Source of the DNA: a virus | IMG/VR virus record: IMGVR_UViG_3300030103_003573 | Span: 4,156 to 68,155 of that record | Strand: one strand, 5' to 3' | DNA: 64,000 nt | Shown here: positions 22,864-64,000 of the stretch, in pieces | Layout: every line of letters starts with the position of its first letter | How positions within the stretch are numbered: position 1 is the stretch's first letter | Program-made: the position numbers and the translations under genes | Notes under the pieces: generated by a model | Seen by the model: the letters and a program-made list of their open reading frames with translations, nothing else | What the model was told of the DNA's origin: nothing | The model's database searches: none

Positions 22864-23355
22864 TTACAAACTCTTTGCACGCTTAGTCAAACAGTAACGA
22901 GCAATCAGGAACGCATCAATCATTCCATCATCTGGAGTTCTGCACCTTTTATTACGTAACCAATTCTCGTCTGGAGCCAGCGTTTGGGCCGTATGTAAAG
23001 CCGCTTGTTTACTTTTGCCTTTAGCGACATGCCCTAACATTTGCTTCTGCCACTTGTGAACGGATACTCTGTTTACATTGTATCCGCAGCACTCGGCCAT
23101 GCCCATAAGCTTGCCAAAACTTAGCGCCATAGACCGGACTGCTTGAGAACTTTTCGCAAACCCGAGTGGCTCTTCCACAGCAAGGATGAAGCTTGAGTTG
23201 AGCAAAGCCAGCCATGCTTTGATTTTTGCTGAATCAATCTCCGTTTTCTTTGATCGGTGCATCGTAGGCATGGAACACTTGGCAATGATCTTTCCGTCTG
23301 GCTCAGATATAGCACAGAGACCTCCTTTCAAACCGTTGTCGATTCCTACAATCAA
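22864..23355 (-). CDS. RuvC-like Holliday junction resolvase
   Basis: GIDNG, AVEE, WQK and DGMIDAFLIA motifs. Confidence 0.8.
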   Translation of the reverse strand: MIVGIDNGLKGGLCAISEPDGKIIAKCSMPTMHRSKKTEIDSAKIKAWLALLNSSFILAVEEPLGFAKSSQAVRSMALSFGKLMGMAECCGYNVNRVSVHKWQKQMLGHVAKGKSKQAALHTAQTLAPDENWLRNKRCRTPDDGMIDAFLIARYCLTKRAKSL

Positions 23356-23588
23356 AGAACGTGCGCTGAAATTATTATCCCGTCACCGTATGCGGGGGTG
23401 AAGTAGTCGTAACCTTTGTTTAAGGACTTCAGGTAAAAAACATCTCTCGTTGTCTTTGGGACAACACGGTAAAAGCGACCTACTCTTTCCTGAACGACAA
23501 AAGAAAATTCGTTCTTGGTGCTGCTATCTTTTCGCACAAGAACTTTTGGGTTGTGCTCGACAACTCTATTTTGGAATAGGTCATTCAT
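23352..23588 (-). CDS. Hypothetical protein
   Basis: Overlaps both neighbours; start moved to ATG 23588. Confidence 0.55.
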   Translation of the reverse strand: MNDLFQNRVVEHNPKVLVRKDSSTKNEFSFVVQERVGRFYRVVPKTTRDVFYLKSLNKGYDYFTPAYGDGIIISAHVL

Positions 23589-23928
23589 CGATGATACTGG
23601 TATCAAGAAAGCATGGTGTATCTGGACCTAAATCTGTCCGCATCAACTCTTGCAAAGCCATGCCAGCTTGTGCTTCTGTGAGTCCGTGTTTTTTCTTGAG
23701 CAACGCAATCGTCATACTTGACGAGTAGCACGCAATAGATGGGTTTTGTGGGTGCTCGACAACTCCGAGGAGCGCCTCTTTTAGTTCAGCAAATAAGACC
23801 AGTGTTGTCGTTGATTCATCGGTTTCATCGCCACCACTTAAATCTAGCTCTACTCCTACTTGCCGAGTGGCATAGGGGTCGTCGAGTGGGTCGTAATTAA
23901 AACTCTCTGAATCAAAGTTGTTGATCAT
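23581..23928 (-). CDS. Hypothetical protein
   Basis: Operon-coupled ORF; start moved to ATG 23928. Confidence 0.6.
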   Translation of the reverse strand: MINNFDSESFNYDPLDDPYATRQVGVELDLSGGDETDESTTTLVLFAELKEALLGVVEHPQNPSIACYSSSMTIALLKKKHGLTEAQAGMALQELMRTDLGPDTPCFLDTSIIDE

Positions 23929-24529
23929 TAGGTTCGATATCAATTATTGGTTGCACGCTTCCCCCACCCTTATCTGCTTTAGAATTATTTAGGATTGAGA
24001 TGTCGATTTGCATTTTGCTGTTGCCTCCTGATTTTGCACCGAGGCCAAGACTGCGCCTTATTATCTGATCCAGTTGGTCCAGATCTTTGACCGTCTTCGG
24101 TCCACGCAGGTTTTTGATATTATCGCGCATGAGTTTGATCCCTTGAGCCGCGATGTAATGCTGATACTGTTCAGCCGGTGTCGCTTGATTCTCCGCAATA
24201 TCCAAGATCGTTTGATCCTCTTCGAGGCGAGCGTCATGCTGGGCACTTAGGATAGCTTCTCTTGTCCGCTTATCTAAGTTGTCCTCTAAGTCTTTAGCTA
24301 GTTCATCGGCATCAAACTCAATGTTAGCTTCGGGACTAACTTCTACCGGCTTTTCGTAAGCCATGTCTTTTTGATTCTTCCGTGGTGGGAGACCTAGTTT
24401 TTTAAACCACCTGCGGACTGTTCCTGAGTGAACACCCAGTTCTTTTGCAATGGCTACGGTCTTCCAGTCAGCGTTATACATTTTTAACGCTCTTTCTTGC
24501 AGGGTCTCTTTGGGTTTGTCAGGCAACAC
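23912..24529 (-). CDS. HTH protein, candidate terminase small subunit
   Basis: N-terminal HTH WKTVAIAKELGVHSGTVRRWF and a helical C-terminus; head-to-head with TerL. Confidence 0.5.
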   Translation of the reverse strand: MLPDKPKETLQERALKMYNADWKTVAIAKELGVHSGTVRRWFKKLGLPPRKNQKDMAYEKPVEVSPEANIEFDADELAKDLEDNLDKRTREAILSAQHDARLEEDQTILDIAENQATPAEQYQHYIAAQGIKLMRDNIKNLRGPKTVKDLDQLDQIIRRSLGLGAKSGGNSKMQIDISILNNSKADKGGGSVQPIIDIEPNDQQL

Positions 24530-41700: not shown

Positions 41701-42624
41701 AAAGCAGCGGGGCCTGCATGGGCACGCTACAATAATCCTCTGTATTACAAGGACGATAATGGGGAGTTGCAGATGATTAACTTCACATACACTAATCCGT
41801 TTTCACCAGTTACAGATAGCATAGCAGCTACGGCAGGTGCAGTCTTCAATCCTGATGCAACACCAGAGAGTGCAGCCACTACGCTCTTTAACTCTTTTCT
41901 TGTTAAGAACTTTTTGAGCGATCAGATCTTTGCGGGTGCTGCCGCTGAAGCGATTAACGGGGAGGACATGCAAACTGGTGAGCGCATCTTTATTGATGGC
42001 GTAGACAAAGGTTTCGATAAGCACATCAAACAGTTAGCTCACATTGGGAAAGCAGCCTTCGCACCAAGGACACTTGAGAACGTAGTCAAAGCCATTCGTA
42101 ATTCTGATGGTGACTTCACAGAGTATCATGACTCTCCAATGGGGCTTGTCTTAAATGAGGTCAACCCAATCAGGGCTGCGTTCAGAGAGATACCCGTTAA
42201 TCCTTCTGATAAGTTCAGATCGTTTTTGTTTAAAACAGAACAACGTAGACAACAAATCCGAGAGAAGTTCAGGCCGTTATACAAGGATGACCCGCTATCG
42301 CCGGAAGATATATTTGATATATACGACGAGGTCTACAAAGACATGGAGTCCTTGAACAAGGATGTCATGAACAAGTTCCAAGCCTTTGAGAAGATAGGGA
42401 TACCCAAGGGTAAACTCTATGCGATGGCCCGTGGTTCAGGCGGTGGACCTAAGCTGGGCAAGCGGAGATCTCAACTGCTCCTGCTTGGCTACATGGAACG
42501 TCCTGTATTGTCGGCTAACAAAGTGCAGATCATGCTCAGTGAAAGTCCAGAGATGCAGGATCGTATCAGAGTTTTTGCAGAAGCAGTTAAGAGATACCCT
42601 CGCTTTAGCAAGATTCAGGATTGA
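29800..42624 (+). CDS. Giant (4274 aa) internal virion / polyvalent-type protein with two zincin-like domains
   Basis: Gly-rich hydrophobic segments near the N-terminus, HELFH (37396-37410), HELAH (38125-38139), helical C-terminal region typical of podovirus ejection proteins. Confidence 0.7.
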   Translation: MSEEPFNPLDRLNLTGPDGPLSVNKLEVSSYDDWSSGQPSQDPLQAHLGYGDYLREEYIKNKGYNEDVEVSIQSELGEALAAKGLLTNENSDDVVSQIDAYNEPTLDQKVRDMVAHTSLGQDEWHNGNAYLERNEGAKTPEQIQRLAENALASVNATRNDVLQAKLDAGEISFGRFTDAQGNSFIKAGDSAMDLPLHEALRKSKEAGGGVSLSDAIGIEQVGLLKVADGVNIPRYKMMQLGEVESLIRSELANDDDLSIQLEAIGKRMAERDYSSFDHFEEGFRKRVAQPIRAGLETVIGVIGDSKPSGVAREKAIDQAMLDDIDSTVMGIAKKFNKNPEDVRLAIQEIAVQNAPLKVFKDKDKLALNIRDDGYGLPFVPIGVKLDDDLFEKSLAARTDLTEATKKAITAERDFFATNHFSNISNILANSDLSKKWLEHLNAGRAAKVSDKEILFSFTSNEDNKPYLDLPIFGDLYLKGSDITRPFSTAFSTVFALSGADWAKKHLANVADDQNNRRELAELFGGKLGMAQDLATLIPEVTVDIAATALLSRFGGRALATKAAAVKAPLYASMTKKGVLKALTTNAFRRGAGESTEQLAEKLASQNLIRSATSKTALEALEAYNKVNLKNLTVGAIGLTAANRSSGATYGTVYNSMLKSGATEEVAHDRALGTGMVAGAVTGLVTGGFSYFGRGGMEDALLSGMSYRNMKTVTERIVQKAPYAQLEGVSDAVFQQAIKESTKAVLKGNFFGKSFVKAGAEEFAEESIDEFINTFVTDAGLEQDTPFFDHLKHSLYAGTLGGILGAGAPAVNAAARRLRPDLVGDLIQDATLEQNLINDITNRLREANSSVTADVVRDILTRDLTPDAVRTPSQEDIDAQELAQQDDSEEVKQQAQFLLEIMRSTPEDQIQEEVDAVRQQRRSRKYRSAYAHSSFGNEMAYREDLAQPVIINEKGEVSDLAGVGLTLRTAEGIDEFDYAEMGIAVEDLPRLEKLIRANPDILAMPDSEWATYDPDFTAEVGDSGVRDFRTLDLTNKGFLTEAEYVQLGRLRDRNKIFYAGDDTVYETMPAEAVQQAIRESKKVEFKKPTSQIETDEFFTAYRVFETVNQGGGQQEVFVRQQYLTRKEAEENAAVQMEFGGQPSVEEFQAKSKVKRVDDDGNETIVDHPLLVKKALRKKGPQKPDKKEKRSRTVTKYELVTKGVVDTEQVVEESVAPIPKVGDTIKYLMGKNSKMTEEATVTRIEYPVVKDAEGEVAFEAMDPDIYVQSEFGKDLEEEVPRELIITGRKQTTKTKIKGKKGADKVLGTFDTEAQAKAAAKKKYPTSFEAKTFVRKVTKSDNETASVEDTVSQATDEDGDPVIDKVHEELLNQIATFNIKVRNADGTPKLSKEAATKKLADLLEKQEVKEQKKELTAQEKFEGAINKVNKLESNGSVSPETAELTRGKILGKRLRTLTRQNKIEEAKKLVADTIAAGKPAYIYNSNSKSLREAKIDEKTGKVAFKKGSRPVFVENIAGEKVFITSTKVNGKIVFHKVGEKPADPAGAGLVFRKRENFVKFLEAGLDITDPSKTVNWAGNVTASELEALNRIVENGLPVIGGMSVEGGRTFGVDTKRRNKKPFYNRMRQVIAERIYNLFPVINVQRPVNGKAIYAQTALTAYSPWEFVKTPAGRRLAAKKARTASLRPTNIGGVFRAIAEAVPFIELDKNNKPKAHKPVAFIDENNEGVFDNDPISMKVLLEEGYSVYFPDDFVGRLNPAFRFVQIGARQKLVDIRGVGYTGDISSVKQRKAVVGDINVESFKKRVAFASKFLRGGTAQDVEIDDPNKRGSKTTLRQMLDDLVHTVNNAFLAETFDPTVEPDAPVESTFKFRADELKELDASLDRANKRLVTGTPEEQEQAARQIETVRDRRDRFYEDLRVDVLKEAKKISDPEIETRIATYENLLFEQRTFQERLGLDLSAKEVAVSQTEIDANYRIIEQAVFKREAIARSEAVRVTQDPQLALKKVQSFFKDRHGRLPLTDTNFQLASRILQTEYANEILFYQLKLQLSDPKISEVEENGALVIKEAQIEKAIDLFLRSVNPTAGANPKAKKGSDYRGLKYNENNKVTRQSKIEFAYYILNSQIDQRVDKVEKGSNYQKVFKNYFEERILMRDGLSTRDRMPSYADVGQKIADRILNQQKRRGGVEKENPFNSENATTPDEIDALNLDMDHFVEMRMGVGEVDSLLEKVQMDVVDIINQDPALEQQLDALLKQGPFALSTSNFYLTLTLEEKWAELVAFSRQGSMEGNSAPIAFLQNIRKLNSPAAVKLHRALRLFNIGNLEFGNKNPFILDKNYERFETDQEIKDEFGASAGQEIGGAVRSREELLNFADEIIDARKYVRWLTDEVRAIETDKGKTITDERARAKAASLHKTIKAYSSHKSFFFGSSVQNAVDRAVAIDSNRRVAVELGLKEGRNDPETIINALKKIATDDSLSESQQNAAKILLLKPSYFEFILDQGGGTYAGMARTKDNGRIEVVLDIAGYNGRGLVDVLLHELFHASLLDSLSIDINSTSKTQRDARFAIGQKIREVREKVGNTTTELTDGLKNVQEFVSNMMNNTKFQDYFRGQVGNPEFKKVVQNLFKVLDPQRSKLRKEFKDAFYDVVDLQGYQESTPITLAGVRQEAVNAAVAEMEESDSFNAAFKAVTGQEGDIDTETASPLELEDIAIRAAELKQLVGIKIPSEIRVVFSTLAGGRVANFDPATNTITFDANNAAIGTLNRGMDSLRAAQMVSKILRHELAHKSAKSALTPEMIQRVIDGSSLQDFKNDIDNYYGKGTPEAEAALARLNDPSKAAREKEVLVQERLADHVERAIGGFSSQEYEAFLRANKSLLGVVSFYFKSFINKFIRALGGGVGQLTADERIAVNRMLVELRGIELGYRAPSPVFNPDATPQESLNRFLVVATGVDAQEFIEDQGATNLLPQVGADSQVDQPRATASTMATPRELDGVDKEFADLLSEADVAPDWPYFKSELQKAQDLFEAQAARITLDSFQQLAHSVFVKQVGDGSILKGQTEFDKKKDEFAKLDPTLEVKDEETGETRTIPNEKYQELKEFFEQREQLAQKMFDSWKVAAKLDQPVNLEDRTPLSERFNFNLNTSEGSPPIPDTDALLKMLGKDLELKSQDPSLDDDGRLYSSFRAKSRSAKDSEFDAFDFNYTELFDQFNLPVLEVGDVEVYGKGFINKIRKFVNTHAVGLLQPEVHHWLKHRQGMTKGLSQELMLIRSKLKSLTDKVYPDGVPVDENGVSLVQKASGSTEGVFISDEARKRIDDQYEADMVAAWTESHQASLDGTEPATKIKADFDAALEAAKANQELETQVELGRRRDQLKAERNEAIQRIAQDSKELSNAIEKLGEFRNKMSEKLQEIHNESGKYDLKIDQNNDIYLTRAYRMFLDVGYADAVRNSPEYKKERDAAIAYFESVHLEIEKKIMMQNNPQMTPTEVESAIRDDMQRRHIGKRALEAFISTYDRGSNVNYFGAEEQIKALVDNLKAKKNIPKELRDILGELKDTNLPDNLLRTIMVVGNMAANQSFLNAVAKAGLKTEDNPDGWLFTEEQIAGVDNPSDYAKLVEGSEFNSDFSPLAGLYAKVNTANAFRETFKRHGTIVANPSEQLFENGFKYFRWLTGLSMGLKTLGSIPFYYRNAIGNVLFFGPMQVGYINIFNVKSAGDLVNAGLHKDFAVNFLKESKRNFLGDKAKLNEYIAKLRVLRLVGDESHTNTFKQLMTGERDIDSTLEDFESIIQGKEGDLSLEGKVSKAIGATSRAVSRRGKIIGTDLAPRMAAAMDSFYKMSMFEFELKHLKAAQEHDRKMNPDSTLAKQTDDQLQKDAAQKVLRTMQSYSQAPPIARAASRSVAGALYAPFVRFQADVIRVMWNTPKIALEEINSGNPILKKRGVQRFSGFVQTAGLASLGLPVLLRTIFGIGDDEDEALKAAGPAWARYNNPLYYKDDNGELQMINFTYTNPFSPVTDSIAATAGAVFNPDATPESAATTLFNSFLVKNFLSDQIFAGAAAEAINGEDMQTGERIFIDGVDKGFDKHIKQLAHIGKAAFAPRTLENVVKAIRNSDGDFTEYHDSPMGLVLNEVNPIRAAFREIPVNPSDKFRSFLFKTEQRRQQIREKFRPLYKDDPLSPEDIFDIYDEVYKDMESLNKDVMNKFQAFEKIGIPKGKLYAMARGSGGGPKLGKRRSQLLLLGYMERPVLSANKVQIMLSESPEMQDRIRVFAEAVKRYPRFSKIQD

Positions 42625-51250: not shown

Positions 51251-51556
51251 TCACTATCTAAAGCGATCCGAGGAGAGGAAAGACTTTGAAACAAGGGAAA
51301 AGGGGATGCGGTAAACGCGGCGCTTTCCTTTCAGACTAGGGGAGGGAAACCATGCAACCATGCAAAATGCCGTTTGCTCAGTGCTATATAGTCCTGCAAA
51401 GTGTTTTGTTACCAAGTGTGATAGCTAACCCATTGAGAATCAGTCAGTTAGGTTATAACTTCCAACAAGATGTGTAATGCGGAGTCCCACGCCACGGGGG
51501 GGTATGCGCTTTTTGTGCGCGCGCGCGTGTACATATATACCTGTCTGTGAAAAAAT

Positions 51557-51584
51557 TTGACAAGACTCGTTCTGCACGAATAAT
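51557..51584 (+). promoter_or_regulatory. Sigma70-like promoter
   Basis: TTGACA-16-AATAAT with an upstream A-tract; ATG 51595 follows after 10 nt. Confidence 0.5.
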
Positions 51585-51594
51585 GCACGCGATC

Positions 51595-51834
51595 ATGGCA
51601 TCGAAGGAATATTACCGTAAAAACAGAGAGGCCCGTCTCAAATACCAGCGTGATTACTACAAGGCGAACAAGGGGAGAATCGCTAGAAAACGTGAGGTTG
51701 CAGAAACCGTGGATCCAAATCTTGCCAAGCGACGGAAAGAATATCAGCGTGCATATTACCGCAAACACCGTGCGCGTATTCTGAAAATGCGTGCAGAGCA
51801 GTATGCGATGAAGAAGTCCGCAAACCGCAAATGA
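51595..51834 (+). CDS. Small basic protein with three YYxxNR-type repeats
   Basis: EYYRKNRE / DYYKANKG / AYYRKHRA helices, similar to segments found next to HNH domains. Confidence 0.6.
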   Translation: MASKEYYRKNREARLKYQRDYYKANKGRIARKREVAETVDPNLAKRRKEYQRAYYRKHRARILKMRAEQYAMKKSANRK

Positions 51835-53111: not shown

Positions 53112-55373
53112 ATGAGCAGCACCTATGCCATTGACGGCCTAGAACTCGCTTCCTTAGACGATAAAGGAAAGCCCGTGGAGACGCGCTTGAAAGATGTCAA
53201 AAGCGCCCTCTCCATTTTTTCAACCCTGCTAAGATCCGACGAGAAGTCATCTATTAACAGAGCAAGGATTGACGCCATGTTTGATGGTGCTGCTCCATAC
53301 GAACAGTCCAGCCTAGTGACTAGTGGGCAAGGATTGAAAACAAACCTGAATTTTGGCGATGCTCAACGACTCCTCGATGTGGCTTTGTCTGCTTATGTTG
53401 ACCTTTATAGTTCTCTGGAGAGACTCGTCGAAGTGCGTGGCACGCAAGGAGAAGCGTCAGAGATCAAACCGGCAGAAGAAATAGTAGCTGACGAACTTAC
53501 GCAGATGATGAGGGCATGGCCCGAGTTTCACAGTGCGTATCTTCGTTTATGCACAACCTTCATTAAGCATGGCGTTTCTGCGGCTTTCTTTGATACACCC
53601 GACGATTGGCGTTTCAGGGTTGGCGGCTTCAATGATTTGCTCATCCCCCGACAGACTCCCTCTAATGAAGAGTGCATCGATGTGGCGGTGGGCCGTAGGC
53701 AATACCTGCTGCATGAACTTTACGCCCACATCAAGAATCCTGAAGCCGCCGCCAAGGTTGGCTGGGATGTTGATGAGGTAAAACGAGTTATTGAGAAAAC
53801 AGCTTCTACAAATGGGCGGTCTGGGAAAACTGGGACTTACAGCACCAGACAGTTTGAGGAGTTGCAGCAGGAGATGAAGAACAACGATCTCTACACTGGG
53901 ATTCAAAACCCGACAGTTTCTGTTCTGCATTTCTGGGTTCGTGAGATGGACGGTAGTGTCAGTCACTACATTGCTTCGGAGCACTCTCCTAAAGACTTTA
54001 TGTATAAGAAGGTTAGCCGCTACGCTAGTGTGGAACAGGCTTACATTCTTTTCACCTATGGTGTTGGCAGCAATGGGACATATCATTCCATCCGTGGTTT
54101 GGGGCAGCGGATCTTCGCCCACGTTCAGACCAGTAACAGGCTGCGTTGTCAGCAGATCGACGGAGCTATGCTTGCCTCTGCTGTAATGATCCAGCCAGAG
54201 AATCAAAGGTCACTGGACGAACTACAGTTCACCTATTACGGGGCGTATGCTGTGCTTTCTCCGAACGTAAAAATTGTTGAGAAAGCTATTCCAAACCTTG
54301 GCACGGCGGTGCAACCAGCATTGCAGGATCTTACCAACCAGTTGCAACTTAACACTGACACGGTAAGCACGTATGGCCCGAATCAGAGTTCACCATACCG
54401 CAACAAGATGCAGGTCGTCGCGGACATGGATGTTACCACCCGCCTTTCTGGAGCGAGCCTTAACTTGTTTTATTCAAGTTGGACTAGGCTTTTGAGGGAG
54501 GTGGTTCGACGGATTGTCACAACCAAGAAGCCAGATGCTGCTGTAAAAGACTTCTTTGATCGTTGCGCTGCAAAAGGGATTTCAAAAGAATTCATTAAGA
54601 CCTTGGACCTAGACCGAACCAAGGCTGTCCGCTCCATTGGTAATGGTAGCCACGCCAACCGCATGGTTGCCCTCAAAGAACTCCAAGGTATTAGCGGCCA
54701 GTTTGACGACGTTGGTAGGCGCAACCTGACAAGGGACATTGTATCCACCCGTGTTGGCCACGATCTTGCAGATAGATACGTTCCTTCCGATATTCAGAAG
54801 CGGCCCACTGTGGATGTTAAGATTGCGTTCTTTGAGAACCAGCAACTGTCGTCAGGGCAACCTGTTCCTGTTGTGGGCAATGAACTCCACGGCACTCACC
54901 TAAGTGTCCATGTCCCGGCACTTAACCAGATTATAGAACAATTAAACACTGGTGAAGTTGATCCAATGCAATCACTCCCTGTGTTGCAAGCGTTCTACGA
55001 ACATATCAGTCAAACAGTTCAATTCGCTGCTGGAGATCCTGCACTGCAAGCTGAAGTTGGTCAGGCTAATCAGATCCTCCAATTCGCTGAAGAGGCAATC
55101 AACAACGCAACTAAAGCGGCACAAAAAATTCAAAGAGATCAGCAAAGAGCAGCTCAAGAAGAAGCTGAGTTTGCTGCTGCCCAAGGACAACCCGCCCCTG
55201 CTCCTGAACAACCACAGGTTGATACCAAGATGATGGAGCATGAAATCAAGATGCGTATTGCTCAAGAGAAAGCACAGGTTGATATGGCTATCAAACAGCA
55301 GAAGCACGATCAGGAGATGGCCATGCGTGATGCTAAGTCAGCTCTTGAATTCCGCGAAAACAGTGACATCTGA
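53112..55373 (+). CDS. Portal protein
   Basis: 753 aa with a Gln-rich coiled-coil C-terminal barrel; heads the scaffold-capsid block. Confidence 0.75.
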   Translation: MSSTYAIDGLELASLDDKGKPVETRLKDVKSALSIFSTLLRSDEKSSINRARIDAMFDGAAPYEQSSLVTSGQGLKTNLNFGDAQRLLDVALSAYVDLYSSLERLVEVRGTQGEASEIKPAEEIVADELTQMMRAWPEFHSAYLRLCTTFIKHGVSAAFFDTPDDWRFRVGGFNDLLIPRQTPSNEECIDVAVGRRQYLLHELYAHIKNPEAAAKVGWDVDEVKRVIEKTASTNGRSGKTGTYSTRQFEELQQEMKNNDLYTGIQNPTVSVLHFWVREMDGSVSHYIASEHSPKDFMYKKVSRYASVEQAYILFTYGVGSNGTYHSIRGLGQRIFAHVQTSNRLRCQQIDGAMLASAVMIQPENQRSLDELQFTYYGAYAVLSPNVKIVEKAIPNLGTAVQPALQDLTNQLQLNTDTVSTYGPNQSSPYRNKMQVVADMDVTTRLSGASLNLFYSSWTRLLREVVRRIVTTKKPDAAVKDFFDRCAAKGISKEFIKTLDLDRTKAVRSIGNGSHANRMVALKELQGISGQFDDVGRRNLTRDIVSTRVGHDLADRYVPSDIQKRPTVDVKIAFFENQQLSSGQPVPVVGNELHGTHLSVHVPALNQIIEQLNTGEVDPMQSLPVLQAFYEHISQTVQFAAGDPALQAEVGQANQILQFAEEAINNATKAAQKIQRDQQRAAQEEAEFAAAQGQPAPAPEQPQVDTKMMEHEIKMRIAQEKAQVDMAIKQQKHDQEMAMRDAKSALEFRENSDI

Positions 55374-55680
55374 AGAACTTTTGGCACTGCATAAAGAGAC
55401 TTGTGAATCTTGTCTCGATATTATGCGTAAGAAAAATTCTGACTACACTGGTGGTAAGAATTCTACGGACCCCTTTGCAAATTTTAAGTGTAGCGAGGTT
55501 CTCGATATTCACCCTGTGCATGGACTGCTGATAAGAGTGATGGATAAAATCAAACGTATCCATTCATTTGTGAACGACAAAGAGCTGCAAGTTCCAGATG
55601 AGACTGTGGATGATGCCTGTGAGGACATAATTAACTACGCTATTTTGGCTAAAGCCATGCTCCGCGAAGAGCGTAAGTAA
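55363..55680 (+). CDS. DUF1599/Nmad1-like all-alpha protein
   Basis: KKNSDY...DPFANF...RVMDKIKR...ETVDDACEDIINYA; start moved to GTG 55363. Confidence 0.7.
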   Translation: MTSEELLALHKETCESCLDIMRKKNSDYTGGKNSTDPFANFKCSEVLDIHPVHGLLIRVMDKIKRIHSFVNDKELQVPDETVDDACEDIINYAILAKAMLREERK

Positions 55681-55921: not shown

Positions 55922-56201
55922 GCCACCTATTCCTATTGACCATTGGTTTAAAGATTTAGCGTCTGTTGAGTCTTTACGGGATGTTTTAGATAACGCAGCA
56001 TTCAAGCAAGCTGTCGCTATTTTAAAAGAAATAGGAGGCCCATCGTTTGGCACCTTACAAGATAATGACACAAACAGCTTAAGGCACGCTTGGTATGCAG
56101 GTTACCGCGATGCTTTCAATGATCTTCAAAAACTAACTAAACTACCAGTCAACGAAAACAAAAACATCCAGCCCGACGAATGGCTACACATTGAGCAATG
56201 A
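55905..56201 (+). CDS. Hypothetical head-module protein
   Basis: AAGGAG before ATG 55905; ATGA overlap with the scaffold gene. Confidence 0.6.
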   Translation: MSKHPKPPIPIDHWFKDLASVESLRDVLDNAAFKQAVAILKEIGGPSFGTLQDNDTNSLRHAWYAGYRDAFNDLQKLTKLPVNENKNIQPDEWLHIEQ

Positions 56202-57415
56202 GTGAAGAAACAGCAGTAGAAGAAGCCCCACAGGTAGAACAGCTACCTGACGCACAGTCAGAACCCAGCCAAGATTCCTTCCTTGATGCTCTGGACAATG
56301 CCTTTGCCGGTTTAGAAAACAGCCCCGTCGAGTCTGTCGAAGGTGATTCTGGTGATCCAGATCCAGAACCTGAAGCTACGCCTGAATCAGAGCCAGAGTC
56401 ATCGCCTGAACCCGAGCCAGAAAAAGAAGAAGCAGAAGCAGAACCAGAAGCAGAAGCAGAAGAGGCTGACACAACATTTGACCCGACAAATGATTTAGAT
56501 GAATCCCTTGAAGATGGCTGGACACCGAAAGCAGCAAACAGGTTCAAACAGCTCAAGTCTGAGTTAAAAGAAACTGCTTCAGAGCTAGAAAAGATCCGGG
56601 TGCTCAACGAGCAGAACGAACAAAAAATCAAAGAGCTTGCTGGTTCAACTGAAAGTTCTGATCTTGAAGCCCTTCAGGAAAAGATTAAATCTTATGAACA
56701 AGCAGACATGCTCAATAATCTTGAGCAGACTGAAGCATTTCAAAATGCTGTGACCAGACCTCTTTCTGCGCTACTTGAACAATCTTCACAGATTGCAGCC
56801 AAGTATGACCTTGATGAGAACGAGATCATCGATCTTATTTCTCTTGATAATCAAGATGCCCAAGACGAAAAGATGTCTGAGCTTCTTGAGTCTGCTTCTG
56901 ATCGAGATAAGGCCACCCTTTATCAGATCATAAACTCGATTAACCCTATTCTTGAGCACAGACAAAAACTGTTTGATAATGCAGAGCAAGCCATGCAAGA
57001 GGCTCAATATCTTGAGGAGCAGGTTTCTAATCAAAAAGCTGCCGAGCAGTTGGAGCTTAGGAAGAATGCTACAAGGAATGTTGTTGAACGTGTTAAGCAG
57101 AAGCTTCCATTCTTGTCTGGTATTGAAGGTTTGGATTTAGCAGCAATAGAACAGAAAGCTGCCGAAAATGACCCATCTGTAGTCCACCCTGTTGATTTTG
57201 CCTATAATTCTGTATCAGCCCAGCTTCTTCCGTCAGTGGTGCGTGAATACGTGACCATGAGGAAAGAAGTTGAAGAATTGACGGACAGACTTGCTGAATA
57301 TGAAAGTGCAGAACCCAAGATGTCTGGGGCTTCTCCCGCAGCTTCAACTACTGCGGTTTCCCCAGAAGGCTCCTTCATGGACCGCGTGAATAGAGAACTT
57401 GCTGGTATGGGGTAA
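56198..57415 (+). CDS. Capsid scaffolding protein
   Basis: Very acidic Glu/Pro-rich N-terminus and long coiled coil, directly upstream of the major capsid gene. Confidence 0.75.
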   Translation: MSEETAVEEAPQVEQLPDAQSEPSQDSFLDALDNAFAGLENSPVESVEGDSGDPDPEPEATPESEPESSPEPEPEKEEAEAEPEAEAEEADTTFDPTNDLDESLEDGWTPKAANRFKQLKSELKETASELEKIRVLNEQNEQKIKELAGSTESSDLEALQEKIKSYEQADMLNNLEQTEAFQNAVTRPLSALLEQSSQIAAKYDLDENEIIDLISLDNQDAQDEKMSELLESASDRDKATLYQIINSINPILEHRQKLFDNAEQAMQEAQYLEEQVSNQKAAEQLELRKNATRNVVERVKQKLPFLSGIEGLDLAAIEQKAAENDPSVVHPVDFAYNSVSAQLLPSVVREYVTMRKEVEELTDRLAEYESAEPKMSGASPAASTTAVSPEGSFMDRVNRELAGMG

Positions 57416-57462
57416 TATAATCCACAGGCACCCCTCAAGTGAGGGTATCCCATCCTGCAAAA

Positions 57463-57507
57463 GCCCCCTACTGGAATATCGTGTTTCTGGTAGGGGGCAT
57501 TTGCTTT
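57463..57507 (+). terminator. Terminator-like hairpin after the scaffold gene
   Basis: gccccctac...gtagggggc followed by atttgcttt. Confidence 0.5.
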
Positions 57508-57512
57508 CCGTA

Positions 57513-57541
57513 TTGACATTTTTAACAAAATGTTTAAGTAT
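57513..57541 (+). promoter_or_regulatory. Putative capsid promoter
   Basis: Perfect TTGACA, AT-rich spacer, imperfect -10 (TAAGTAT). Confidence 0.4.
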
Positions 57542-57556
57542 GGCCCCATAAGCGAA

Positions 57557-57657
57557 GGTTGCTCTAGCCACAAATAGTTCTACACCGCTTCCCATTGGGC
57601 TGAGTTCCAATACACACATAGATTTGATCCGGTTGCTCTAGCCACAAATAGTTCTAC
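57557..57657 (+). repeat. Two identical 27-bp motifs in the capsid leader
   Basis: ggttgctctagccacaaatagttctac at 57557-57583 and 57631-57657. Confidence 0.95.
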
Positions 57658-57736
57658 GAAAGGTCAATCGCCCTAACCTTTTTTAACCTGCCCGACAACA
57701 GGGCGCATTTCTTTACCTATTTAACACCACAATCAA

Positions 57737-59044
57737 ATGGCTGGACAATTCGACAACAGCACTGCCGCGATTGATAACATCCTGACTCAGGAAGCTAATC
57801 GTATCGGTGACGACATTCACAAGTCAACCCTCCACACTTCCCCGTGGATGGACCTTATTAGACAGGGCGCATTCCCCGAGGGAATGGGCTATGAACTTAA
57901 CACCCTTGTCTACGACAGGGCACTACCACTGAAGAGCGGCACTCTTGCCAATACTCCTGTTATTGGGGTCAACTGGAACGCACTTCAGACTGGCACAGCC
58001 AATAGTGCTGTTGGTTTCACTGACGGGCAGACTACCGCAAGCGCGGCTCTCAGCGCCGAAGGAAAAGCAAAACTCGACTTCACCAAGAAGCTCAAAAGCT
58101 ACAGCCTGAAAAAAGCTGTGGTCGAGTCTCCTCGGCTTAACGTCGAAGACCTTCGTTATGCTGCCCACCGTAACGATCAGCTCAGTGCGATCATGGATCT
58201 CATGCAAGAGTCCGTGCGTAACACTTGGGAAAATCGTTATCGTGACGAGTATGACCGCCTTGCCGACAACTGCGTTGTCTGTAAGTCCGCGAGCACTGCC
58301 TTCATCACTGGTGGTGAAACTAAGCAGTCATTTGCAGCAGATGAGTCCGCAGAGCCAGCGACAGTAAAGACTGGTGATGTGGAAGTAACTGGTGGTGCCC
58401 CAGATCCTGACATCAACGCGAACATCTCGAACGCGATTATGGACAAGATCTACTTTCAGCTTGTCCGTGCTGGCGCAGGTGCGAAGGCTTATGGTCGTGA
58501 GAATGGTCGTCCGATCTTCTCCGTGGTCATGTCTTCTGAGGCTTCTTATCAGCTCCAGACTGAATCCGGCTTCCGTGATGATGTCCGCTACAACAACGCA
58601 AGGGTCGGAGAACTTATCGCCCCACTTGGTGTAGAGAAGTCCTTCCGTGGTTTCTACCACTTGGTTGACGATCTCACCACTCGTTATAGCTATGTTGATG
58701 CTAAAGACACACTCATCAAAGTTGAGCCTTACACCGTAACTGGTGGTGTTGTTGTTCCGAATCCAGCTTACGAGAGTGCTTCATTTGAGGCTGCTTACGT
58801 TCTGGTGGACGATGTGATGGAGTCTTTGATCCCAGCACCTACAGCAACTGCTCCGGGTCTGACCTTCGATCCCGTCAACTTTAAGGGCGAGTTTCGCTGG
58901 ACGAACATCGCAGACGCAGAAGTCAATCCAGATAAAACGATTGGTTTCTTCCGTGGCATCATGGCTAGTGCATCCAAGCCGATTAAGACTCAGTTTGGAT
59001 ATGTTGTCATCTTCAAGAGAGACACCTCTACTGTTGCTGCCTAG
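57737..59044 (+). CDS. Major capsid protein
   Basis: 435 aa, after portal and scaffold, with its own leader and a strong terminator. Confidence 0.8.
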   Translation: MAGQFDNSTAAIDNILTQEANRIGDDIHKSTLHTSPWMDLIRQGAFPEGMGYELNTLVYDRALPLKSGTLANTPVIGVNWNALQTGTANSAVGFTDGQTTASAALSAEGKAKLDFTKKLKSYSLKKAVVESPRLNVEDLRYAAHRNDQLSAIMDLMQESVRNTWENRYRDEYDRLADNCVVCKSASTAFITGGETKQSFAADESAEPATVKTGDVEVTGGAPDPDINANISNAIMDKIYFQLVRAGAGAKAYGRENGRPIFSVVMSSEASYQLQTESGFRDDVRYNNARVGELIAPLGVEKSFRGFYHLVDDLTTRYSYVDAKDTLIKVEPYTVTGGVVVPNPAYESASFEAAYVLVDDVMESLIPAPTATAPGLTFDPVNFKGEFRWTNIADAEVNPDKTIGFFRGIMASASKPIKTQFGYVVIFKRDTSTVAA

Positions 59045-59069: not shown

Positions 59070-59112
59070 ATCCCGAACCCTGAATGACCCTTCGGGGTTC
59101 GGGATTTCTTTT
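59070..59112 (+). terminator. Intrinsic terminator after the capsid gene
   Basis: atcccgaaccctgaa...ttcggggttcgggat followed by ttctttt. Confidence 0.8.
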
Positions 59113-59118
59113 AGAGCT

Positions 59119-59466
59119 ATGCCGAACATGCCAAAAGAAGACATGGATTCTCCTATGGGCTTCATACTCGCTTTGGAGTCTTCCATGAAAGGAGAGAAGA
59201 TGGATTCTGAAGACGCTCCTGTCGAAAAGCCTGAGATGGCTAAATCTGACGGGCCGGATCCAAAAGAAGATAAAGCTCCTGAAGATATGGGGGACAAAAA
59301 GGAAAGAGCTGCCGAGCTTTTTTCTGTTATCTTTGGTTCTGACTTCGATGAAGAATCTGAAGGTCAAAAAATGCTGCTAGATCAAATCATGGAAAACATG
59401 GAAGACCCTAGCTTCAAAGACCTCAACCCAAACCAGTTTGCTCTTAAAATGCTTAAGGGCATGTAG
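59119..59466 (+). CDS. Acidic hypothetical protein
   Basis: 115-aa ORF. Confidence 0.65.
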   Translation: MPNMPKEDMDSPMGFILALESSMKGEKMDSEDAPVEKPEMAKSDGPDPKEDKAPEDMGDKKERAAELFSVIFGSDFDEESEGQKMLLDQIMENMEDPSFKDLNPNQFALKMLKGM

Positions 59467-59468
59467 TC

Positions 59469-59888
59469 ATGTCCCAGCTTAACGTCTTACATAGAGTTCA
59501 ACTTAACGTAGGCAGCATCCCCCTGTCTTTTTCGCACTCTGCTCTTTCTGCTGATACCACCACTGGATTTAGCATCGGGACTCAGCGGGTAGGGGCCACT
59601 GCGGAGTTTATTGGGGGAGACGCCTCTAATTTTTCACGGGCTGAAATAACCGCAACATCGAGAAATTGTCTTATGCTGATCCGCAATGATAATGCGGCCT
59701 CAACAGCAGACGCCGATCAACTCCTCGTTTGTCTTGATTCCACAGTAGGTAGCCCACTCTTCAATGTTGTTATCAAACCACAATTTGTGAATTTGATTTC
59801 AATCGAAGATTTTGTGAAGATAAAAGTAAAAAGTGGGGGTAACAATGTAGACTATACCTTCGCTGTAGTTCAAATAGACGCTGAATAA
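59469..59888 (+). CDS. Putative beta-rich virion protein
   Basis: 139-aa ORF in the structural operon. Confidence 0.6.
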   Translation: MSQLNVLHRVQLNVGSIPLSFSHSALSADTTTGFSIGTQRVGATAEFIGGDASNFSRAEITATSRNCLMLIRNDNAASTADADQLLVCLDSTVGSPLFNVVIKPQFVNLISIEDFVKIKVKSGGNNVDYTFAVVQIDAE

Positions 59889-59893
59889 TTAAA

Positions 59894-60301
59894 ATGGCTA
59901 ACATCCAGTTACAACGAGGACAAAACCAGCAGATCGACGTTACATTTAAAAATCCTGCGGGGAGCGTCATAGATCTTGATCCCGACACCATCACTTACGA
60001 CGCGGAGTTAGTCATAAGGCAAAAAGAAAAAAACAAGTTTGCAGGTGCTGTTGTTGATGTTCTTAGACATGGCACCTCCAGCCCAGCACGACCCGATGCC
60101 GATGGTCGTATTACTTTTGCGTCTACTGCACCAAATATTTCCCTTAAGTGGAGCACTGCCCAAGCAAACCTCTTGCCTAACTTATCGCAGACTATTGCTG
60201 GTGACTTAAAGATTACGCAAACTTCAGCCGGAGATTTCCAGAATGAAGTAGTGCATCACATAAATCTCAAGTTTGATATAATCCCCGAAATCATAGAATA
60301 A
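59894..60301 (+). CDS. Putative tail-fibre adaptor protein, copy 2
   Basis: MANIQLQRG...PNISLKWSTAQ...GDLKIT; homolog of 817..1197. Confidence 0.65.
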   Translation: MANIQLQRGQNQQIDVTFKNPAGSVIDLDPDTITYDAELVIRQKEKNKFAGAVVDVLRHGTSSPARPDADGRITFASTAPNISLKWSTAQANLLPNLSQTIAGDLKITQTSAGDFQNEVVHHINLKFDIIPEIIE

Positions 60302-63300
60302 TGGCTAATGAGTCAGTAACGATCACACAGACCACCAACTCAGTTTCTGCTACACAAACCACCGATTCGGTAACAGTAGTTTCTGAGGGGCCAATAGGTC
60401 TTAACGCAGGGGGCACCATCTTAGGTGCCCTTACTGTTGGCGTCGATGGCACCGGCCACGACGTAAAGTTCTTCGGGGATACCGCTGGCAAATACATGCA
60501 GTGGGACCAGAGCGCCGATAAGTTGTTCATCAACGGCGAGCTTGAGGTCAACGGAGGTGCCACCACGTTCAACTCAACCGTCATCACGATTGACGACCCC
60601 ATCTTCTCGCTTGGTGGTCAGCAGCGGACTGACGCGCTGGACGACTCAAAAGATCGCGGCATAGAATTCTTTTACCACGACGGTGCCCAGAAGACTGGCT
60701 TCATGGGTTACGACGACAGTGCGGATGCGTTTACATTCCTGACGAGCGCGACGAACTCGAACGAAGTCTTTAGTGGGACGGCAGCGACGGTCCAGATGGG
60801 CCATCTTAATTTCGTCGAGGGTTCCGGCGGCCAGATCCAGTTCAATGGGACTGAGAAGATCAATATAGGCACAAATAATATTGGGCTTCGTAAGCCTCTT
60901 TACGGCATGACTGGAACGGTTGACATCGGTCTGTCGAGTAATCCGTTTCGCGATGGTCATTTCAGTGGGACACTTAACACAGGAGCAGTCACTCCAGTCA
61001 CTGACAATGCTCACGCTCTAGGTGTATCTCAAACGAAAGAGTGGAGCGAAGTCGCTACCCGCAAAGTAACAGGCAATAACAACAGGATGGTGCTGGAGCT
61101 AGACAGCGACACCGTTGTTTTAAGGGATCATAACACAGTGGGGACTGGCGTTGTGTTAAAGAGCCGGAATGCCGCTGGGTTGACTTTGGACAATTCTGGA
61201 GACGTAACCTTTGGGGGAACCATAACTGTCCCACAAGGCACCGCCGGAACTGGAGGGACAGGATCTATCGTCAACGCCTCGTTTAACGACTTTGGTCTCA
61301 ACTTCACCGGAAACAATAAGCTGCAAACATATCGCGGCACAACAGTCCTTACAGAGACAGGACAAAGCGGTGCGCTCGGATATTTAGTTATCGGTTCTAC
61401 TTCGCTTCTTGGTTTTGCACACAATGCTGTCGGAGGCACTCCGGGCGATGTAAGCTTTTCGAGGATTTCATCGGGAGTGCTAGGACTTGGCACCGGTGCG
61501 CTTGGCGAGACTGACGGAACGCTGCTGGCGGGGAAAGTAGGAATCGGCACTACGGCACCTTCAGAGTTGCTCCATGTATCCAGCGCCACTTCTCACAAGC
61601 CTGTCTTACTAGTAGAAAATACAAATGCCGATTCTTCGGGCGCGTTTTTAAGGTTGTTCAAGAATACGGCTAGTGCTGGCGTTGATGACAACATTGGGTC
61701 AATCCAGTTCCAGTCGAACAACAATCAAGGCAGCGGTCGCGTATTTGCTCAGATTGCTGCCCGAATCCATGACCCTGTTGCTGCTACTGCGACTGGCGAG
61801 CTGAAGTTTAACACTTTCGTCAACGGGACAGACACGACAGTGATGACCATGCTGGACGGAAACGTCGGCATCAATCAAACCTCACCGACAGCACCGCTCC
61901 ATATCGGCGGCGGGGTATCTGACACCTACGCAAAGATCGGGCACTACTGGACCTTTGCCAGTAACACCCTGTCCAGCAGCGGAGCCTTGAAGATCAACGC
62001 CGGATCAGGCGAAGATATTCATCTTCAGGAAAACGGCACAGACCGCCTAGTCGTAAGGCGCACGACCGGCAACATCGGGATAGGAGTCGCGGCACCTTCT
62101 ACTAAGGTTCACATCTTAAACGGAACGGGCAACGATCCGCACATTCGTCTCTCTGATCCGAATAGCGCCAGCACAAATAGTGCTACCGGATACTTGGAGG
62201 TGTATCACGGTAACACGACCGGCAGGGCCGGATACTTTGGGATGATCACCAACGCTGAAATGGCGTTGGCTACTACTACCTCAAGCGGCAACTTTCGAGT
62301 TTACACTGGAAACAACCAAGCTGCGCTTTCGATTGACAACTCACAGAACGTCGGCATCGGCACTACGGCACCGGCAAGAAAATTTCATGTCAACGCAGGG
62401 TCTTTAGATGTTGGTATTCGTCTGGAGAGTTCAGACGAATTGGCTAAAATTGAGCTGCAAGATAACGGGGGCACGGCTTGGATTGGTGGTAAAAGCGGAG
62501 GACTCCATCTACAAGGAGGTGGAAGTGATACCGTTGGATCGCTTGTAGTAAAAGACGGGAACGTCGGAATCGGCACTACGGCACCGGCTGCTCTTTTGCA
62601 TGTATCAGGCGCAATGGGTTCGGGGGTAGATGGCCCTGACAAGACGGGGATAAGGCTAACCAATACTCCAAACGGACAGACATGGAGAGTTGCATCAGGA
62701 TCAGGAGGGGTAAACCATAGCTACTTTACCATCGCAAGAGCAGGGCAATTCCCAGCTTTGACCATAGATACCTCTGACAATGTCGGTATTGATGTAACCA
62801 ATCCAAGCGAAAAGCTCGAAGTCGCAGGAGAGTATATACTTGTTAATTCTACAAATTCATTTGGTGGGCTAAGGATAAAAACTTCTTCAGGAACAGATCG
62901 CGGCTATGTTTACGGAGACGGGAGTGGGCTGCATTTGTTAGACAATTCTGGAGGATATGCTCTTACCGTAGAGAATGACGGGACTAAAAATATCGGTATA
63001 GGCACTACGTCACCGGCAGCCGCACTTCATGTTAGCAAAGATTCTGGTGGGGCGATTTCTGAAGTAGCCCACTTCGTAGGAGGTGGTTCTACCGACGACA
63101 AAACCCAAATTACTGTTGGCGGAAACACAAGTTCCGCACTGGTTTCATTCGGATTCCGCAATACTGGATCAGGTTTTGGTTACATTGCCAACGCTTCAGA
63201 CGCAGAGGTTCTAACCATCGACGGCGGGAACAGTCGGGTCGGCATCGGAGTCACAAATCCGGTATATGACTTAACGGTTGCGGGTAATATTGGCCTCACC

Positions 63301-64000
63301 ACCGGAACGACTAATTCTATCTTCCTGAACAATGGGAACGTCAGCGTAAAAGGGGATAGCAACAACAAGCTATTCCTTAATGCCCTCGACGAAATAAGAC
63401 TAAGCACAGCGTCTACCGAAAGATTGAGAGTTGAGTCCGGCGGACTAGTGCGCGTCTTCGGCGACCTGCAAGTAGACGGCACGACAACGACTGTCAATAG
63501 CACCGTTGTCACCATAGACGATCCGGTGCTTACGCTAGGCGGCGATACCGCACCAAGCTCCGACGACAACAAAGATCGCGGGATAGAATTCCGTTATTAC
63601 GACGGTAGCGCAAAAGTCGGTTTCATGGGATGGGACGATAGTGCTGGTGGATTTACTTTTCTTAAATCAGCAACCAACTCTTCTGAAGTCTTTAGCGGCA
63701 CGGCTGCAAGTCTAGCAACTGGCGCGATATCCGCTTCTGGAGATGTAGTAATTAGTGCATCAAATTCTAGGTTCGAGGTGATTGACACAGATAGCAGTCT
63801 GAAGACTGTTCTTGCTGCGGGGAATACATTGGGAGCCGTTGGCACCTACACGAATCACCCGCTCCACATCAGAACACGCGCACTAGACGCAATCGTCATT
63901 GATACGTCACAGAACGTCGGCATAGCCAACAATAATCCAGCGCAAAAATTGTCAGTCACAGGTAGTGCGGCGATTTCTTCGACTTTATACCTTGGAAGCG
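60301..64000 (+). CDS. Second modular tail fibre (3'-truncated; absent from the ORF track because no stop is reached)
   Basis: MANESVTITQTT...GLNAGG...KDRGIEFFY..., nine GNVGIG-type junctions, in frame at the window end (NVGIANNNPAQKLSVT). Confidence 0.85.
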   Translation, partial: MANESVTITQTTNSVSATQTTDSVTVVSEGPIGLNAGGTILGALTVGVDGTGHDVKFFGDTAGKYMQWDQSADKLFINGELEVNGGATTFNSTVITIDDPIFSLGGQQRTDALDDSKDRGIEFFYHDGAQKTGFMGYDDSADAFTFLTSATNSNEVFSGTAATVQMGHLNFVEGSGGQIQFNGTEKINIGTNNIGLRKPLYGMTGTVDIGLSSNPFRDGHFSGTLNTGAVTPVTDNAHALGVSQTKEWSEVATRKVTGNNNRMVLELDSDTVVLRDHNTVGTGVVLKSRNAAGLTLDNSGDVTFGGTITVPQGTAGTGGTGSIVNASFNDFGLNFTGNNKLQTYRGTTVLTETGQSGALGYLVIGSTSLLGFAHNAVGGTPGDVSFSRISSGVLGLGTGALGETDGTLLAGKVGIGTTAPSELLHVSSATSHKPVLLVENTNADSSGAFLRLFKNTASAGVDDNIGSIQFQSNNNQGSGRVFAQIAARIHDPVAATATGELKFNTFVNGTDTTVMTMLDGNVGINQTSPTAPLHIGGGVSDTYAKIGHYWTFASNTLSSSGALKINAGSGEDIHLQENGTDRLVVRRTTGNIGIGVAAPSTKVHILNGTGNDPHIRLSDPNSASTNSATGYLEVYHGNTTGRAGYFGMITNAEMALATTTSSGNFRVYTGNNQAALSIDNSQNVGIGTTAPARKFHVNAGSLDVGIRLESSDELAKIELQDNGGTAWIGGKSGGLHLQGGGSDTVGSLVVKDGNVGIGTTAPAALLHVSGAMGSGVDGPDKTGIRLTNTPNGQTWRVASGSGGVNHSYFTIARAGQFPALTIDTSDNVGIDVTNPSEKLEVAGEYILVNSTNSFGGLRIKTSSGTDRGYVYGDGSGLHLLDNSGGYALTVENDGTKNIGIGTTSPAAALHVSKDSGGAISEVAHFVGGGSTDDKTQITVGGNTSSALVSFGFRNTGSGFGYIANASDAEVLTIDGGNSRVGIGVTNPVYDLTVAGNIGLTTGTTNSIFLNNGNVSVKGDSNNKLFLNALDEIRLSTASTERLRVESGGLVRVFGDLQVDGTTTTVNSTVVTIDDPVLTLGGDTAPSSDDNKDRGIEFRYYDGSAKVGFMGWDDSAGGFTFLKSATNSSEVFSGTAASLATGAISASGDVVISASNSRFEVIDTDSSLKTVLAAGNTLGAVGTYTNHPLHIRTRALDAIVIDTSQNVGIANNNPAQKLSVTGSAAISSTLYLGS

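Follow-up and report, generated by a model that had tools for sequence, protein, structure and literature searches.

A conserved tandem RNA element, very probably structured, in the leader of a phage major capsid gene

What purpose does an exact repeat of 27 nucleotides serve in front of the major capsid gene of an uncultured marine phage? The question arises in IMG/VR virus record IMGVR_UViG_3300030103_003573, of which positions 4,156–68,155 were analysed; this stretch of 64,000 nucleotides is called the window. The repeat lies in a gap of 321 nucleotides between open reading frames (ORFs) of 405 amino acids (56198–57415) and 435 amino acids (57737–59044), the second of which is regarded as the capsid gene on grounds given below. 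A preliminary description of the locus had reported an identical 27-mer occurring twice, 74 bp apart, between a TTGACA box and the capsid ATG. An exact search locates the copies at 57557–57583 and 57631–57657, 74 nucleotides from start to start, with TTGACA at 57513–57518 and the ATG of the ORF at 57737. It is proposed that a structured RNA module of ~40–50 nucleotides stands twice at the 5′ end of the capsid mRNA, each 27-mer being the conserved core of one copy. Comparison with related phages indicates that the leader very probably contains a conserved structured RNA. That the tandem modules act as a docking site for a trans-acting macromolecule is given a probability of about 0.5.

Each module would consist of a closing helix of free sequence, P1, around a nearly invariant core helix. 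With core positions counted from the first base of the 27-mer, the features are:

57550–57590, + strand: RNA module 1, in which P1 pairs 57550–57554 with 57586–57590 and the core is 57557–57583.
Module 1 core pairs, + strand: G5–C24 (57561/57580), C8–G21, U9–A20 and A10–U19 (57566/57575).
57557–57559 with 57567–57569, + strand: possible stem 1 (S1) of module 1.
57621–57669, + strand: RNA module 2, in which P1 pairs 57621–57629 with 57662–57669 (one bulge) and the core is 57631–57657.

Allowing up to three mismatches, the 27-mer has two sites in the window versus 0.00 expected from 100 shuffles, and the whole 68,155-bp record holds two forward and no reverse matches. The different closing stems proposed for the two copies, AAGCG (57550–57554) with CGCTT (57586–57590) for copy 1 and GATTTGATC (57621–57629) with GGTCAATC (57662–57669) for copy 2, are both used in the minimum free energy (MFE) fold.

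A search of IMG/VR with the capsid protein yielded 57 loci at 39–86% identity. In most of these loci, GGTTGCTCTAGCC, a short A/T-rich spacer and TAGTTCTA follow one another on the sense strand 5′ of the capsid gene, usually twice. The core comprises 13 nucleotides, an A/U-rich spacer of 5–9 nucleotides and a block of 6–8 nucleotides, and is nearly invariant. An exact-pattern scan of IMG/VR identified 87 contigs, a number that rises to 95 when any base is allowed at position 10. At 79 of the 87 loci, a capsid homologue follows on the same strand, and the remaining 8 loci end before the gene. Across these 79 loci, the core starts 98–186 nucleotides before the capsid ORF for copy 2 and 154–249 nucleotides before it for copy 1. 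The motif conservation on which the preliminary description depended is therefore present, and the core is nearly invariant although the capsid proteins of these relatives are just 50–86% identical.

Searches with a covariance model (R1) gave the same picture of one tandem site per genome. On the phage's own genome, R1 found only two sites (E-values of 2.5e-10 and 1.5e-9; the next, 1.8). Of 34 relatives searched as whole records, 27 have two adjacent sites, 1 has a single site and 6 have none, and no record has a further site at another place; copies missed by the exact pattern were recovered as diverged second copies. Copy-to-copy spacing ranges from 52 to 90 nucleotides across relatives. Both copies carry identical spacers at 5 of 33 two-copy loci, the window included, which suggests occasional conversion between copies; such conversion would account for the perfect 27-mer seen in the window. 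Three relatives of one lineage (L033, L036 and L049) carry a C6-to-U plus U23-to-C swap in both copies, and their copies differ in pair 10–19 and in the loop. A swap shared by both copies is what would be expected from co-evolution with one shared reader.

The closing helix was assessed by treating the 14 nucleotides 5′ and 15 nucleotides 3′ of the core as a duplex in 70 distinct instances. Own flanks have a mean energy of −8.05 kcal/mol versus −3.33 kcal/mol for flanks combined across instances (n = 4830, Mann–Whitney p = 9e-34), and a reversed-flank control gives −3.99 kcal/mol. P1 stems vary in sequence, length (3–13 pairs) and junction length, yet remain complementary. As junction lengths vary, P1 was left out of the covariance model and is supported by flank complementarity instead. 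Because of G–U pairs, flank duplexes are more stable on the + strand (−8.05 kcal/mol) than on the − strand (−7.24 kcal/mol; 41 versus 27, Wilcoxon p = 0.005). The suggestion of a tandem structured RNA with a conserved core and interchangeable stems is supported by this own-flank pairing and by a covarying pair in the core.

That covarying pair is 10–19. In a model-based alignment of 119 distinct rows it is found in all four Watson–Crick types (AU 109, GC 8, CG 1, UA 1), so that the covariation among relatives called for by the preliminary description is observed, and C8–G21, U9–A20 and G5–C24 are invariant. Every cell of the core helix holds a standard pair, compared with 4–48% of cells for partners slid out of register, and the covariation score is attained in 0 of 500 shuffles. 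A MAFFT alignment gives AU 62, GC 9, CG 1, UA 1 and 1 other for the same pair. In a looser census of 154 distinct instances, about three of them likely false positives, pair 10–19 is AT 137, GC 11, CG 1 and TA 1 with 4 non-pairs, opposition 6/23 is C/U in 148 and U/C in 5, pair 5–24 is GC 151 and GU 3, and pair 3–11 is UG 148, UA 4 and CG 2. The core helix also contains two pyrimidine–pyrimidine oppositions, C6/U23 and U7/U22, both of which are conserved.

A small GGUUG/UAGCC hairpin had been proposed for the same 27-mer. It can be drawn, RNAalifold picks it and its outer three pairs hold; its inner part does not stand, as positions 8–10 pair with 19–21 instead. Pair 4–10 of this hairpin is UA 139, UG 9, UC 1 and UU 1. 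Only the outer three pairs survive because U4–N10 breaks where N10 is C or U, and N10–N19 stays paired there. Stems 1–3/11–13 and 5–10/19–24 can coexist only as an H-type pseudoknot.

Positions 1–3 (GGU) probably pair with 11–13 (GCC), which would give a compact pseudoknot of this type. Its predicted parts are stem 1 (1–3/11–13), loop 1 (U4, 1 nucleotide), stem 2 (5–10/19–24) and loop 3 (the A/U-rich spacer of 5–9 nucleotides). Loop lengths of 1 nucleotide for L1 and 5–9 nucleotides for L3 suit textbook H-type pseudoknot geometry. Of the two stems, the one in the stem 2 position, 5–10 with 19–24, is formed and kept in evolution. In the 119 rows, G1–C13 and G2–C12 never vary and pair 3–11 is UG 115, UA 3 and CG 1.

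The exact pattern occurs in 15 stretches of bacterial genomes, compared with ~35 expected by chance on our own estimate (19 fixed bases, 596 Gb). Five of the 15 are two-copy phage contigs binned into metagenome-assembled genomes of discordant phyla, labelled Opitutae, Verrucomicrobiales, Blastopirellula and Acidimicrobiaceae. The single bacterial matches, including five orthologous Methylophaga sites, are without the last bases of the 3′ block and the closing stem and were rejected as chance.

Two further elements occupy the leader of relatives lacking an R1 match. A motif-less sister group (L013:2860–2925, L015, L017 and L026) carries another conserved capsid-leader element in the same place, namely a GACCUGCCAGURGGUC-type hairpin followed by a UGCGCUA-containing stretch, 3′ of a TTGAC promoter. 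The capsid leader looks like a place in which different RNA elements can be exchanged. In L012:2795–2870, the first 14 nucleotides of a motif-like element give a perfect hairpin of five pairs (GGCAG/CUGCC), after which come an A-rich stretch and AUUCUAA. Should the L012 element be homologous, it would support pairing of positions 1–5 with 9–13.

The name given to the downstream gene was at first a guess made without a family match, and is now backed by structural comparison:

57737–59044, + strand: major capsid protein gene, 435 amino acids, HK97 fold.

The protein has no Pfam or PHROG match, tblastn against 50,697 GenBank phage records found none, and blastn of the leader against GenBank phages was likewise negative. 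An AlphaFold model built from 27 homologues is of modest confidence (predicted local distance difference test score, pLDDT, 56; predicted template modelling score 0.59). Foldseek matched this model to the HK97-fold major capsid proteins of N4, Moo19, DEV, Pan3 and others, with E-values of 1.6e-7 to 1e-5, probability 1.0 and template modelling scores of about 0.45–0.5. Upstream lie a 753-residue portal-sized ORF, small ORFs and the 405-residue scaffold-position ORF, in that order. The label of major capsid gene was accepted on the strength of the HK97-fold matches and this typical gene order. A leader peptide or small ORF ahead of the gene was ruled out by in-frame stops in the leader and the lack of a conserved ORF.

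Between clades (L003–L059), identity is 51–57% for the capsid protein, 41–46% for the portal and 31–37% for the scaffold-position protein; being highest for the capsid protein, it marks the capsid gene as the slowest-evolving head gene here. The portal ORF shares its end with an overlapping ORF of 146 residues (55240–55680, +), which matches DUF1599, 'nucleotide modification associated domain 1', and occurs in few relatives. A 4274-residue ORF (29800–42624, +) has no Pfam or PHROG match and is found at 23–33% identity in 17 of 17 relatives examined. Given the N4-like capsid fold and a genome of ~60–68 kb, it could be the counterpart of a virion-packaged giant protein. A 2684-residue ORF (1194–9248, +) and an open-ended ORF of at least 1233 residues (60301–63999, +) share repeated domains of phrog_697, 'structural protein', and tail-fibre families; as the end of the window is the end of the record, the latter ORF may continue at the record start.

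The modules are set within a leader whose other features are as follows:

57463–57508, + strand: terminator-like hairpin of 14 pairs with a T-rich tail, which ends the 405-residue scaffold-position gene.
57513–57541, + strand: sigma-70-like promoter, with −35 TTGACA at 57513–57518, a spacer of 16–17 nucleotides and −10-like TAAGTAT at 57535–57541.
57595–57610, + strand: small middle hairpin with a UUGG/CCAA-type stem and CUNNGU loop, found in a subset of relatives; MFE z = −1.38.
57689–57705, + strand: HP3, a GC-rich hairpin between module 2 and the start codon; z = −2.10.
59070–59105, + strand: terminator-like hairpin of 15 pairs with a T-rich tail, just 3′ of the capsid gene.

A simple promoter scan missed 57513–57541 because the −10 match is weak. 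Among 87 distinct upstream regions of relatives, 69 have TTGAC 42–60 nucleotides before copy 1 begins, and most of the others have TTGCAT at the −35 position. The −10-like box of relatives is TAAGAT, TAATAT or TAAGAAT, about 16–17 nucleotides past the −35 box. From the spacing of these boxes, the transcription start is predicted to lie no more than a few nucleotides away from the 5′ strand of module 1 P1, and not downstream of the repeats, the case that would have refuted the preliminary description. With terminator-like hairpins on either side, the capsid gene looks like its own transcription unit. Marine metatranscriptome contigs (≥99% identity) cover parts of the capsid ORF and none covers module 1; a 203-nucleotide RNA-library contig spans 57623–57819, from module 2 into the ORF. 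A Shine–Dalgarno sequence precedes none of the 38 window ORFs, whose upstream regions are A-rich, and promoters are sigma-70-like (TTGACA).

Neither module resembles an intrinsic terminator or attenuator, in which a GC-rich stem is followed directly by a U tract, and a terminator scan listed only 57463–57498, 57689–57705 and 59070–59105. A hairpin at the HP3 position is present in most relatives, 30–45 nucleotides past module 2, with a U tract in only some. RNAalifold on 14 leaders shows two pairs of the middle hairpin changed on both sides (UA 7/AU 3; GC 10/AU 3). A terminator/antiterminator switch was rejected as a general mechanism: the hairpin that overlaps the 3′ strand of module 2 P1 is present in the window and the L010 group and, by eye, not in L006, L008 or L034.

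In the proposed mechanism, a sequence-specific trans-acting factor docks on the core; it would most likely be a protein, which may be phage-encoded and may bind the two copies as a dimer. This putative factor would act on the capsid message after initiation: it would either stabilise or mark a monocistronic mRNA that is highly expressed, or modulate how elongation proceeds along the leader. Since module 2 ends 79 nucleotides before the AUG, the start site is unlikely to be occluded directly. As the modules lie far from the AUG, at the 5′ end of a terminator-bounded unit, stability, marking or elongation control is likelier than occlusion of initiation. The ~20 fixed nucleotides, the shared rare swap, the single site per genome and the low stability of the modules point to one specific reader. 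The low intrinsic stability may also be a sign that the modules require a partner or tertiary contacts.

In a search for candidate readers, every ORF of the window's genome was compared with 17 whole relatives (12 motif-bearing and 5 motif-less). Shadow frames aside, only a few ORFs combine frequent occurrence in motif-bearing genomes with rarity in motif-less ones. A lipobox-bearing ORF of 95 residues in the lysis block is present in 11 of 12 motif-bearing versus 0 of 5 motif-less genomes. In a profile search of 34 records, a 78-residue protein (23352–23588, −) occurs in 26 of 28 motif-bearing versus 0 of 6 motif-less records, and a basic protein of ~80 residues (51547–51834, +) in 23 of 28 versus 1 of 6. 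The sole motif-less record with the basic protein is the genome of L012, which bears the diverged motif-like element; three complete motif-bearing genomes are without the basic protein at E ≤ 0.01.

The 78-residue and basic proteins have no Pfam or PHROG match and are regarded as candidate readers, not findings. The 78-residue protein is modelled with a pLDDT of 91 as a small beta-rich domain, for which no convincing match was obtained among solved structures (Foldseek best E 1.3; VIA best Z 2.6). Tyr, Arg and Lys are very abundant in the basic protein, which contains repeated YYxxN(K/R)xxI units; most of its ten invariant positions are Tyr. In relatives it is encoded 1–1.5 kb 5′ of the portal gene on the same strand. 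It is a candidate nucleic-acid binder. Motif-less relatives are more distant (portal identity 41–46% versus 48–95%; scaffold 31–37% versus 36–86%), and the co-occurrence of either protein with the motif may therefore reflect only descent.

Several observations weigh against a protein-read structured RNA. The two small proteins follow the motif imperfectly, mostly along one clade split, and the trans-acting factor remains putative; a small-molecule aptamer, or an element that RNA polymerase or the ribosome recognises, would fit the invariance of the core equally well. The modules show no thermodynamic excess over shuffled sequences (z = −0.49 and +0.30; leader z = +0.72), so that the case for RNA structure rests on comparison. 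RNAalifold prefers the small hairpin, which competes with helix 5–10/19–24, and S1 of the pseudoknot depends on the invariant G1, G2, C12 and C13 plus one-sided changes. The transcription start is deduced from promoter-like boxes, and the RNA-library contigs give no strand, 5′ ends or expression level, with DNA carry-over possible.

Among the alternatives, antitermination is unlikely. In a mechanism like that of lambda nut/boxB or HK022 put, the RNA polymerase transcribing the modules would be modified by them as nascent RNA, either unaided or together with a small basic phage protein. The change, processive or local, would allow the polymerase to read through HP3 and the post-capsid terminator into downstream structural genes. 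The layout is suggestive, as the modules lie directly 3′ of a promoter and 5′ of the terminator-like hairpins at 57689–57705 and 59070–59105, and three genes (59119–60301) come after the capsid terminator, the first promoter-like site listed there being at 59666. The confinement of the motif to one site per genome fits, and the basic protein (51547–51834), distributed with the motif as described above, opens the rightward gene block. A U run follows HP3 in some relatives, such as L005, but the U tract is absent at most HP3 hairpins, and module 2 has no conserved alternative pairing with HP3. The absence of the basic protein from three complete motif-bearing genomes also counts against it, and put stem-loops are two different structures rather than one repeated module.

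It is similarly improbable that the modules are processing or stability signals without a dedicated reader, whether as 5′-terminal protectors against 5′-end-dependent decay or as sites for RNase III or RNase E. Late mRNAs of T7 and other phages provide precedent for RNase processing and for a protective 5′ hairpin. Module 1 beginning within a few nucleotides of the predicted 5′ end, the 3′ terminator hairpin of the capsid unit, and a conserved A/U-rich ACAUAGA-like stretch 5′ of module 2 in many relatives are all compatible with such a role. Protective hairpins, however, need no 20 invariant nucleotides across capsids that are ~50% identical, and helices of 13–20 pairs with mismatches are short for RNase III.

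There is also a slim chance that the modules are compact pseudoknot aptamers of a new class and need no dedicated phage protein, acting either as a tandem riboswitch for a host metabolite or as an RNA that engages host RNA polymerase or the ribosome. If so, an RNA-only switch would time or boost capsid production in an abundant marine phage family, in hosts that do not use Shine–Dalgarno sequences. The specific case of a tandem riboswitch, in which each module binds a small molecule and ligand occupancy sets capsid expression, is doubtful. One conceivable ligand is a purine-like base bound in the conserved C/U pocket, where one C still faces one U after the change from C6/U23 to U6/C23. An invariant core within a variable helix is the pattern of an aptamer, poor intrinsic stability fits ligand-dependent folding, and the size, pseudoknot-like topology and A-rich loop recall preQ1-I and SAM-II/V, with tandem hairpins known from guanidine-II. 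Against this, no conserved expression platform was found in the leaders, at least 79 nucleotides separate the modules from the start codon, and a search at a threshold as loose as E ≤ 10 matched no riboswitch model of Rfam. A metabolic logic is also missing for an element that occurs only ahead of a phage capsid gene.

A DNA-level element (a tandem operator, which the preliminary description had offered as its alternative, a downstream promoter element or a hairpin promoter for a phage RNA polymerase) is very improbable. In its favour, the repeat is direct and exact and keeps a fixed distance to the −35 box; N4-like phages, the nearest by capsid fold, use DNA hairpin promoters; and a helix–turn–helix protein is encoded at 23912–24529. 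Duplex recognition, however, leaves unexplained the complementary, sequence-free flanks, the covarying internal pair, the spacer range of 5–9 nucleotides and the copy spacing of 52–90 nucleotides, G–U pairs favour the + strand, Pfam and PHROGs detect no phage RNA polymerase among the window proteins, and the motif lies away from early-gene positions.

The favoured reading, a docking site for a trans-acting factor, would bear on the phage's most heavily made product, the capsid protein; dedicated RNA signals on the capsid messages of double-stranded DNA phages are barely described. Near letter-for-letter constraint despite ~50% capsid identity implies a specific reader and a control step relevant to fitness. 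The element, of ~45 nucleotides, is small enough for direct biochemical and structural work, and offers a handle on gene regulation in uncultured, apparently widespread marine phages whose proteins are mostly without family.

Comparison with known systems began with Rfam. The check suggested in the preliminary description found no family matching the motif: cmscan with Rfam 15 over 57000–58200 and 57530–57740 at E ≤ 10 gave nothing on the motif + strand, its only match being RF01097 on the − strand (12.6 bits versus a gathering score of 43). Rfam at gathering thresholds gave 0 matches across the whole window, and ARAGORN found no tRNA or transfer-messenger RNA in it. The preQ1-I model, in the Rfam family PreQ1, which we take to be RF00522, is absent from the cmscan matches at E ≤ 10; the preQ1-I riboswitch and the module are alike only in size, topology and A-rich loop. 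ANTAR targets and guanidine-II (mini-ykkC) RNAs likewise contain two similar hairpins with free stems, fixed core nucleotides and a variable linker. Their conserved nucleotides are in hexa- or tetraloops, whereas here the apical loop is variable and the helix interior fixed, and their Rfam models do not match the motif.

Two DNA-based classes are also distinct. Mini-CRISPRs or solitary repeats of phages have unrelated spacers, no flank pairing and no fixed gene context; here the flanks are complementary and the position 5′ of the capsid gene is fixed at 79 of 87 loci, which are all those that reach the gene. N4-type DNA hairpin promoters have a 5–7-bp stem and a 3-nucleotide loop, lie at early-gene starts and are used by the virion RNA polymerase. 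By contrast, the hairpins in the capsid leader enclose 27–31 nucleotides and precede a late structural gene. Among the window proteins no member of an RNA polymerase family was found, although the 4274-residue protein without a family match could hide one.

Closer parallels exist among phage RNAs. The T4 gene 32 operator is also a compact 5′ pseudoknot-type element in a phage mRNA leader, proposed to be read by a protein, with an A/U-rich, Shine–Dalgarno-poor stretch before the start codon. It precedes a gene for a single-stranded DNA-binding protein, whereas two modules in their own closing helices precede a capsid gene here. Further hairpins lie between the modules and the AUG, unlike in T4; there is no sequence similarity, and the reader here is putative. 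Lambda/P22 nut boxB and HK022 put are likewise small conserved RNA structures just 3′ of a phage promoter, acting in cis on a long operon, and nut RNA is read by a small arginine-rich protein. However, boxB is a single 15-nucleotide hairpin with a conserved loop and put comprises two unlike stem-loops, so that neither is a repeated pseudoknot-like module; both are without a covarying internal pair such as that of the capsid-leader module.

A survey of IMG/VR viruses predicted 10,006 candidate structured RNAs, five of them 5′ of a T7-type capsid family (PHA00201-type) (PMC10690425). These candidates share with the present element their IMG/VR source and their character as uncharacterised cis-regulatory RNAs 5′ of phage genes; the text of that paper names, for capsid genes, only candidates 5′ of those of the PHA00201 type. 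No description of the capsid-leader element was found in the literature compared, which did not extend to the full candidate lists of PMC10690425. The element, unusually well conserved and of defined architecture, constitutes an uncatalogued family within a known general class of RNA, the cis-regulatory leader RNAs.

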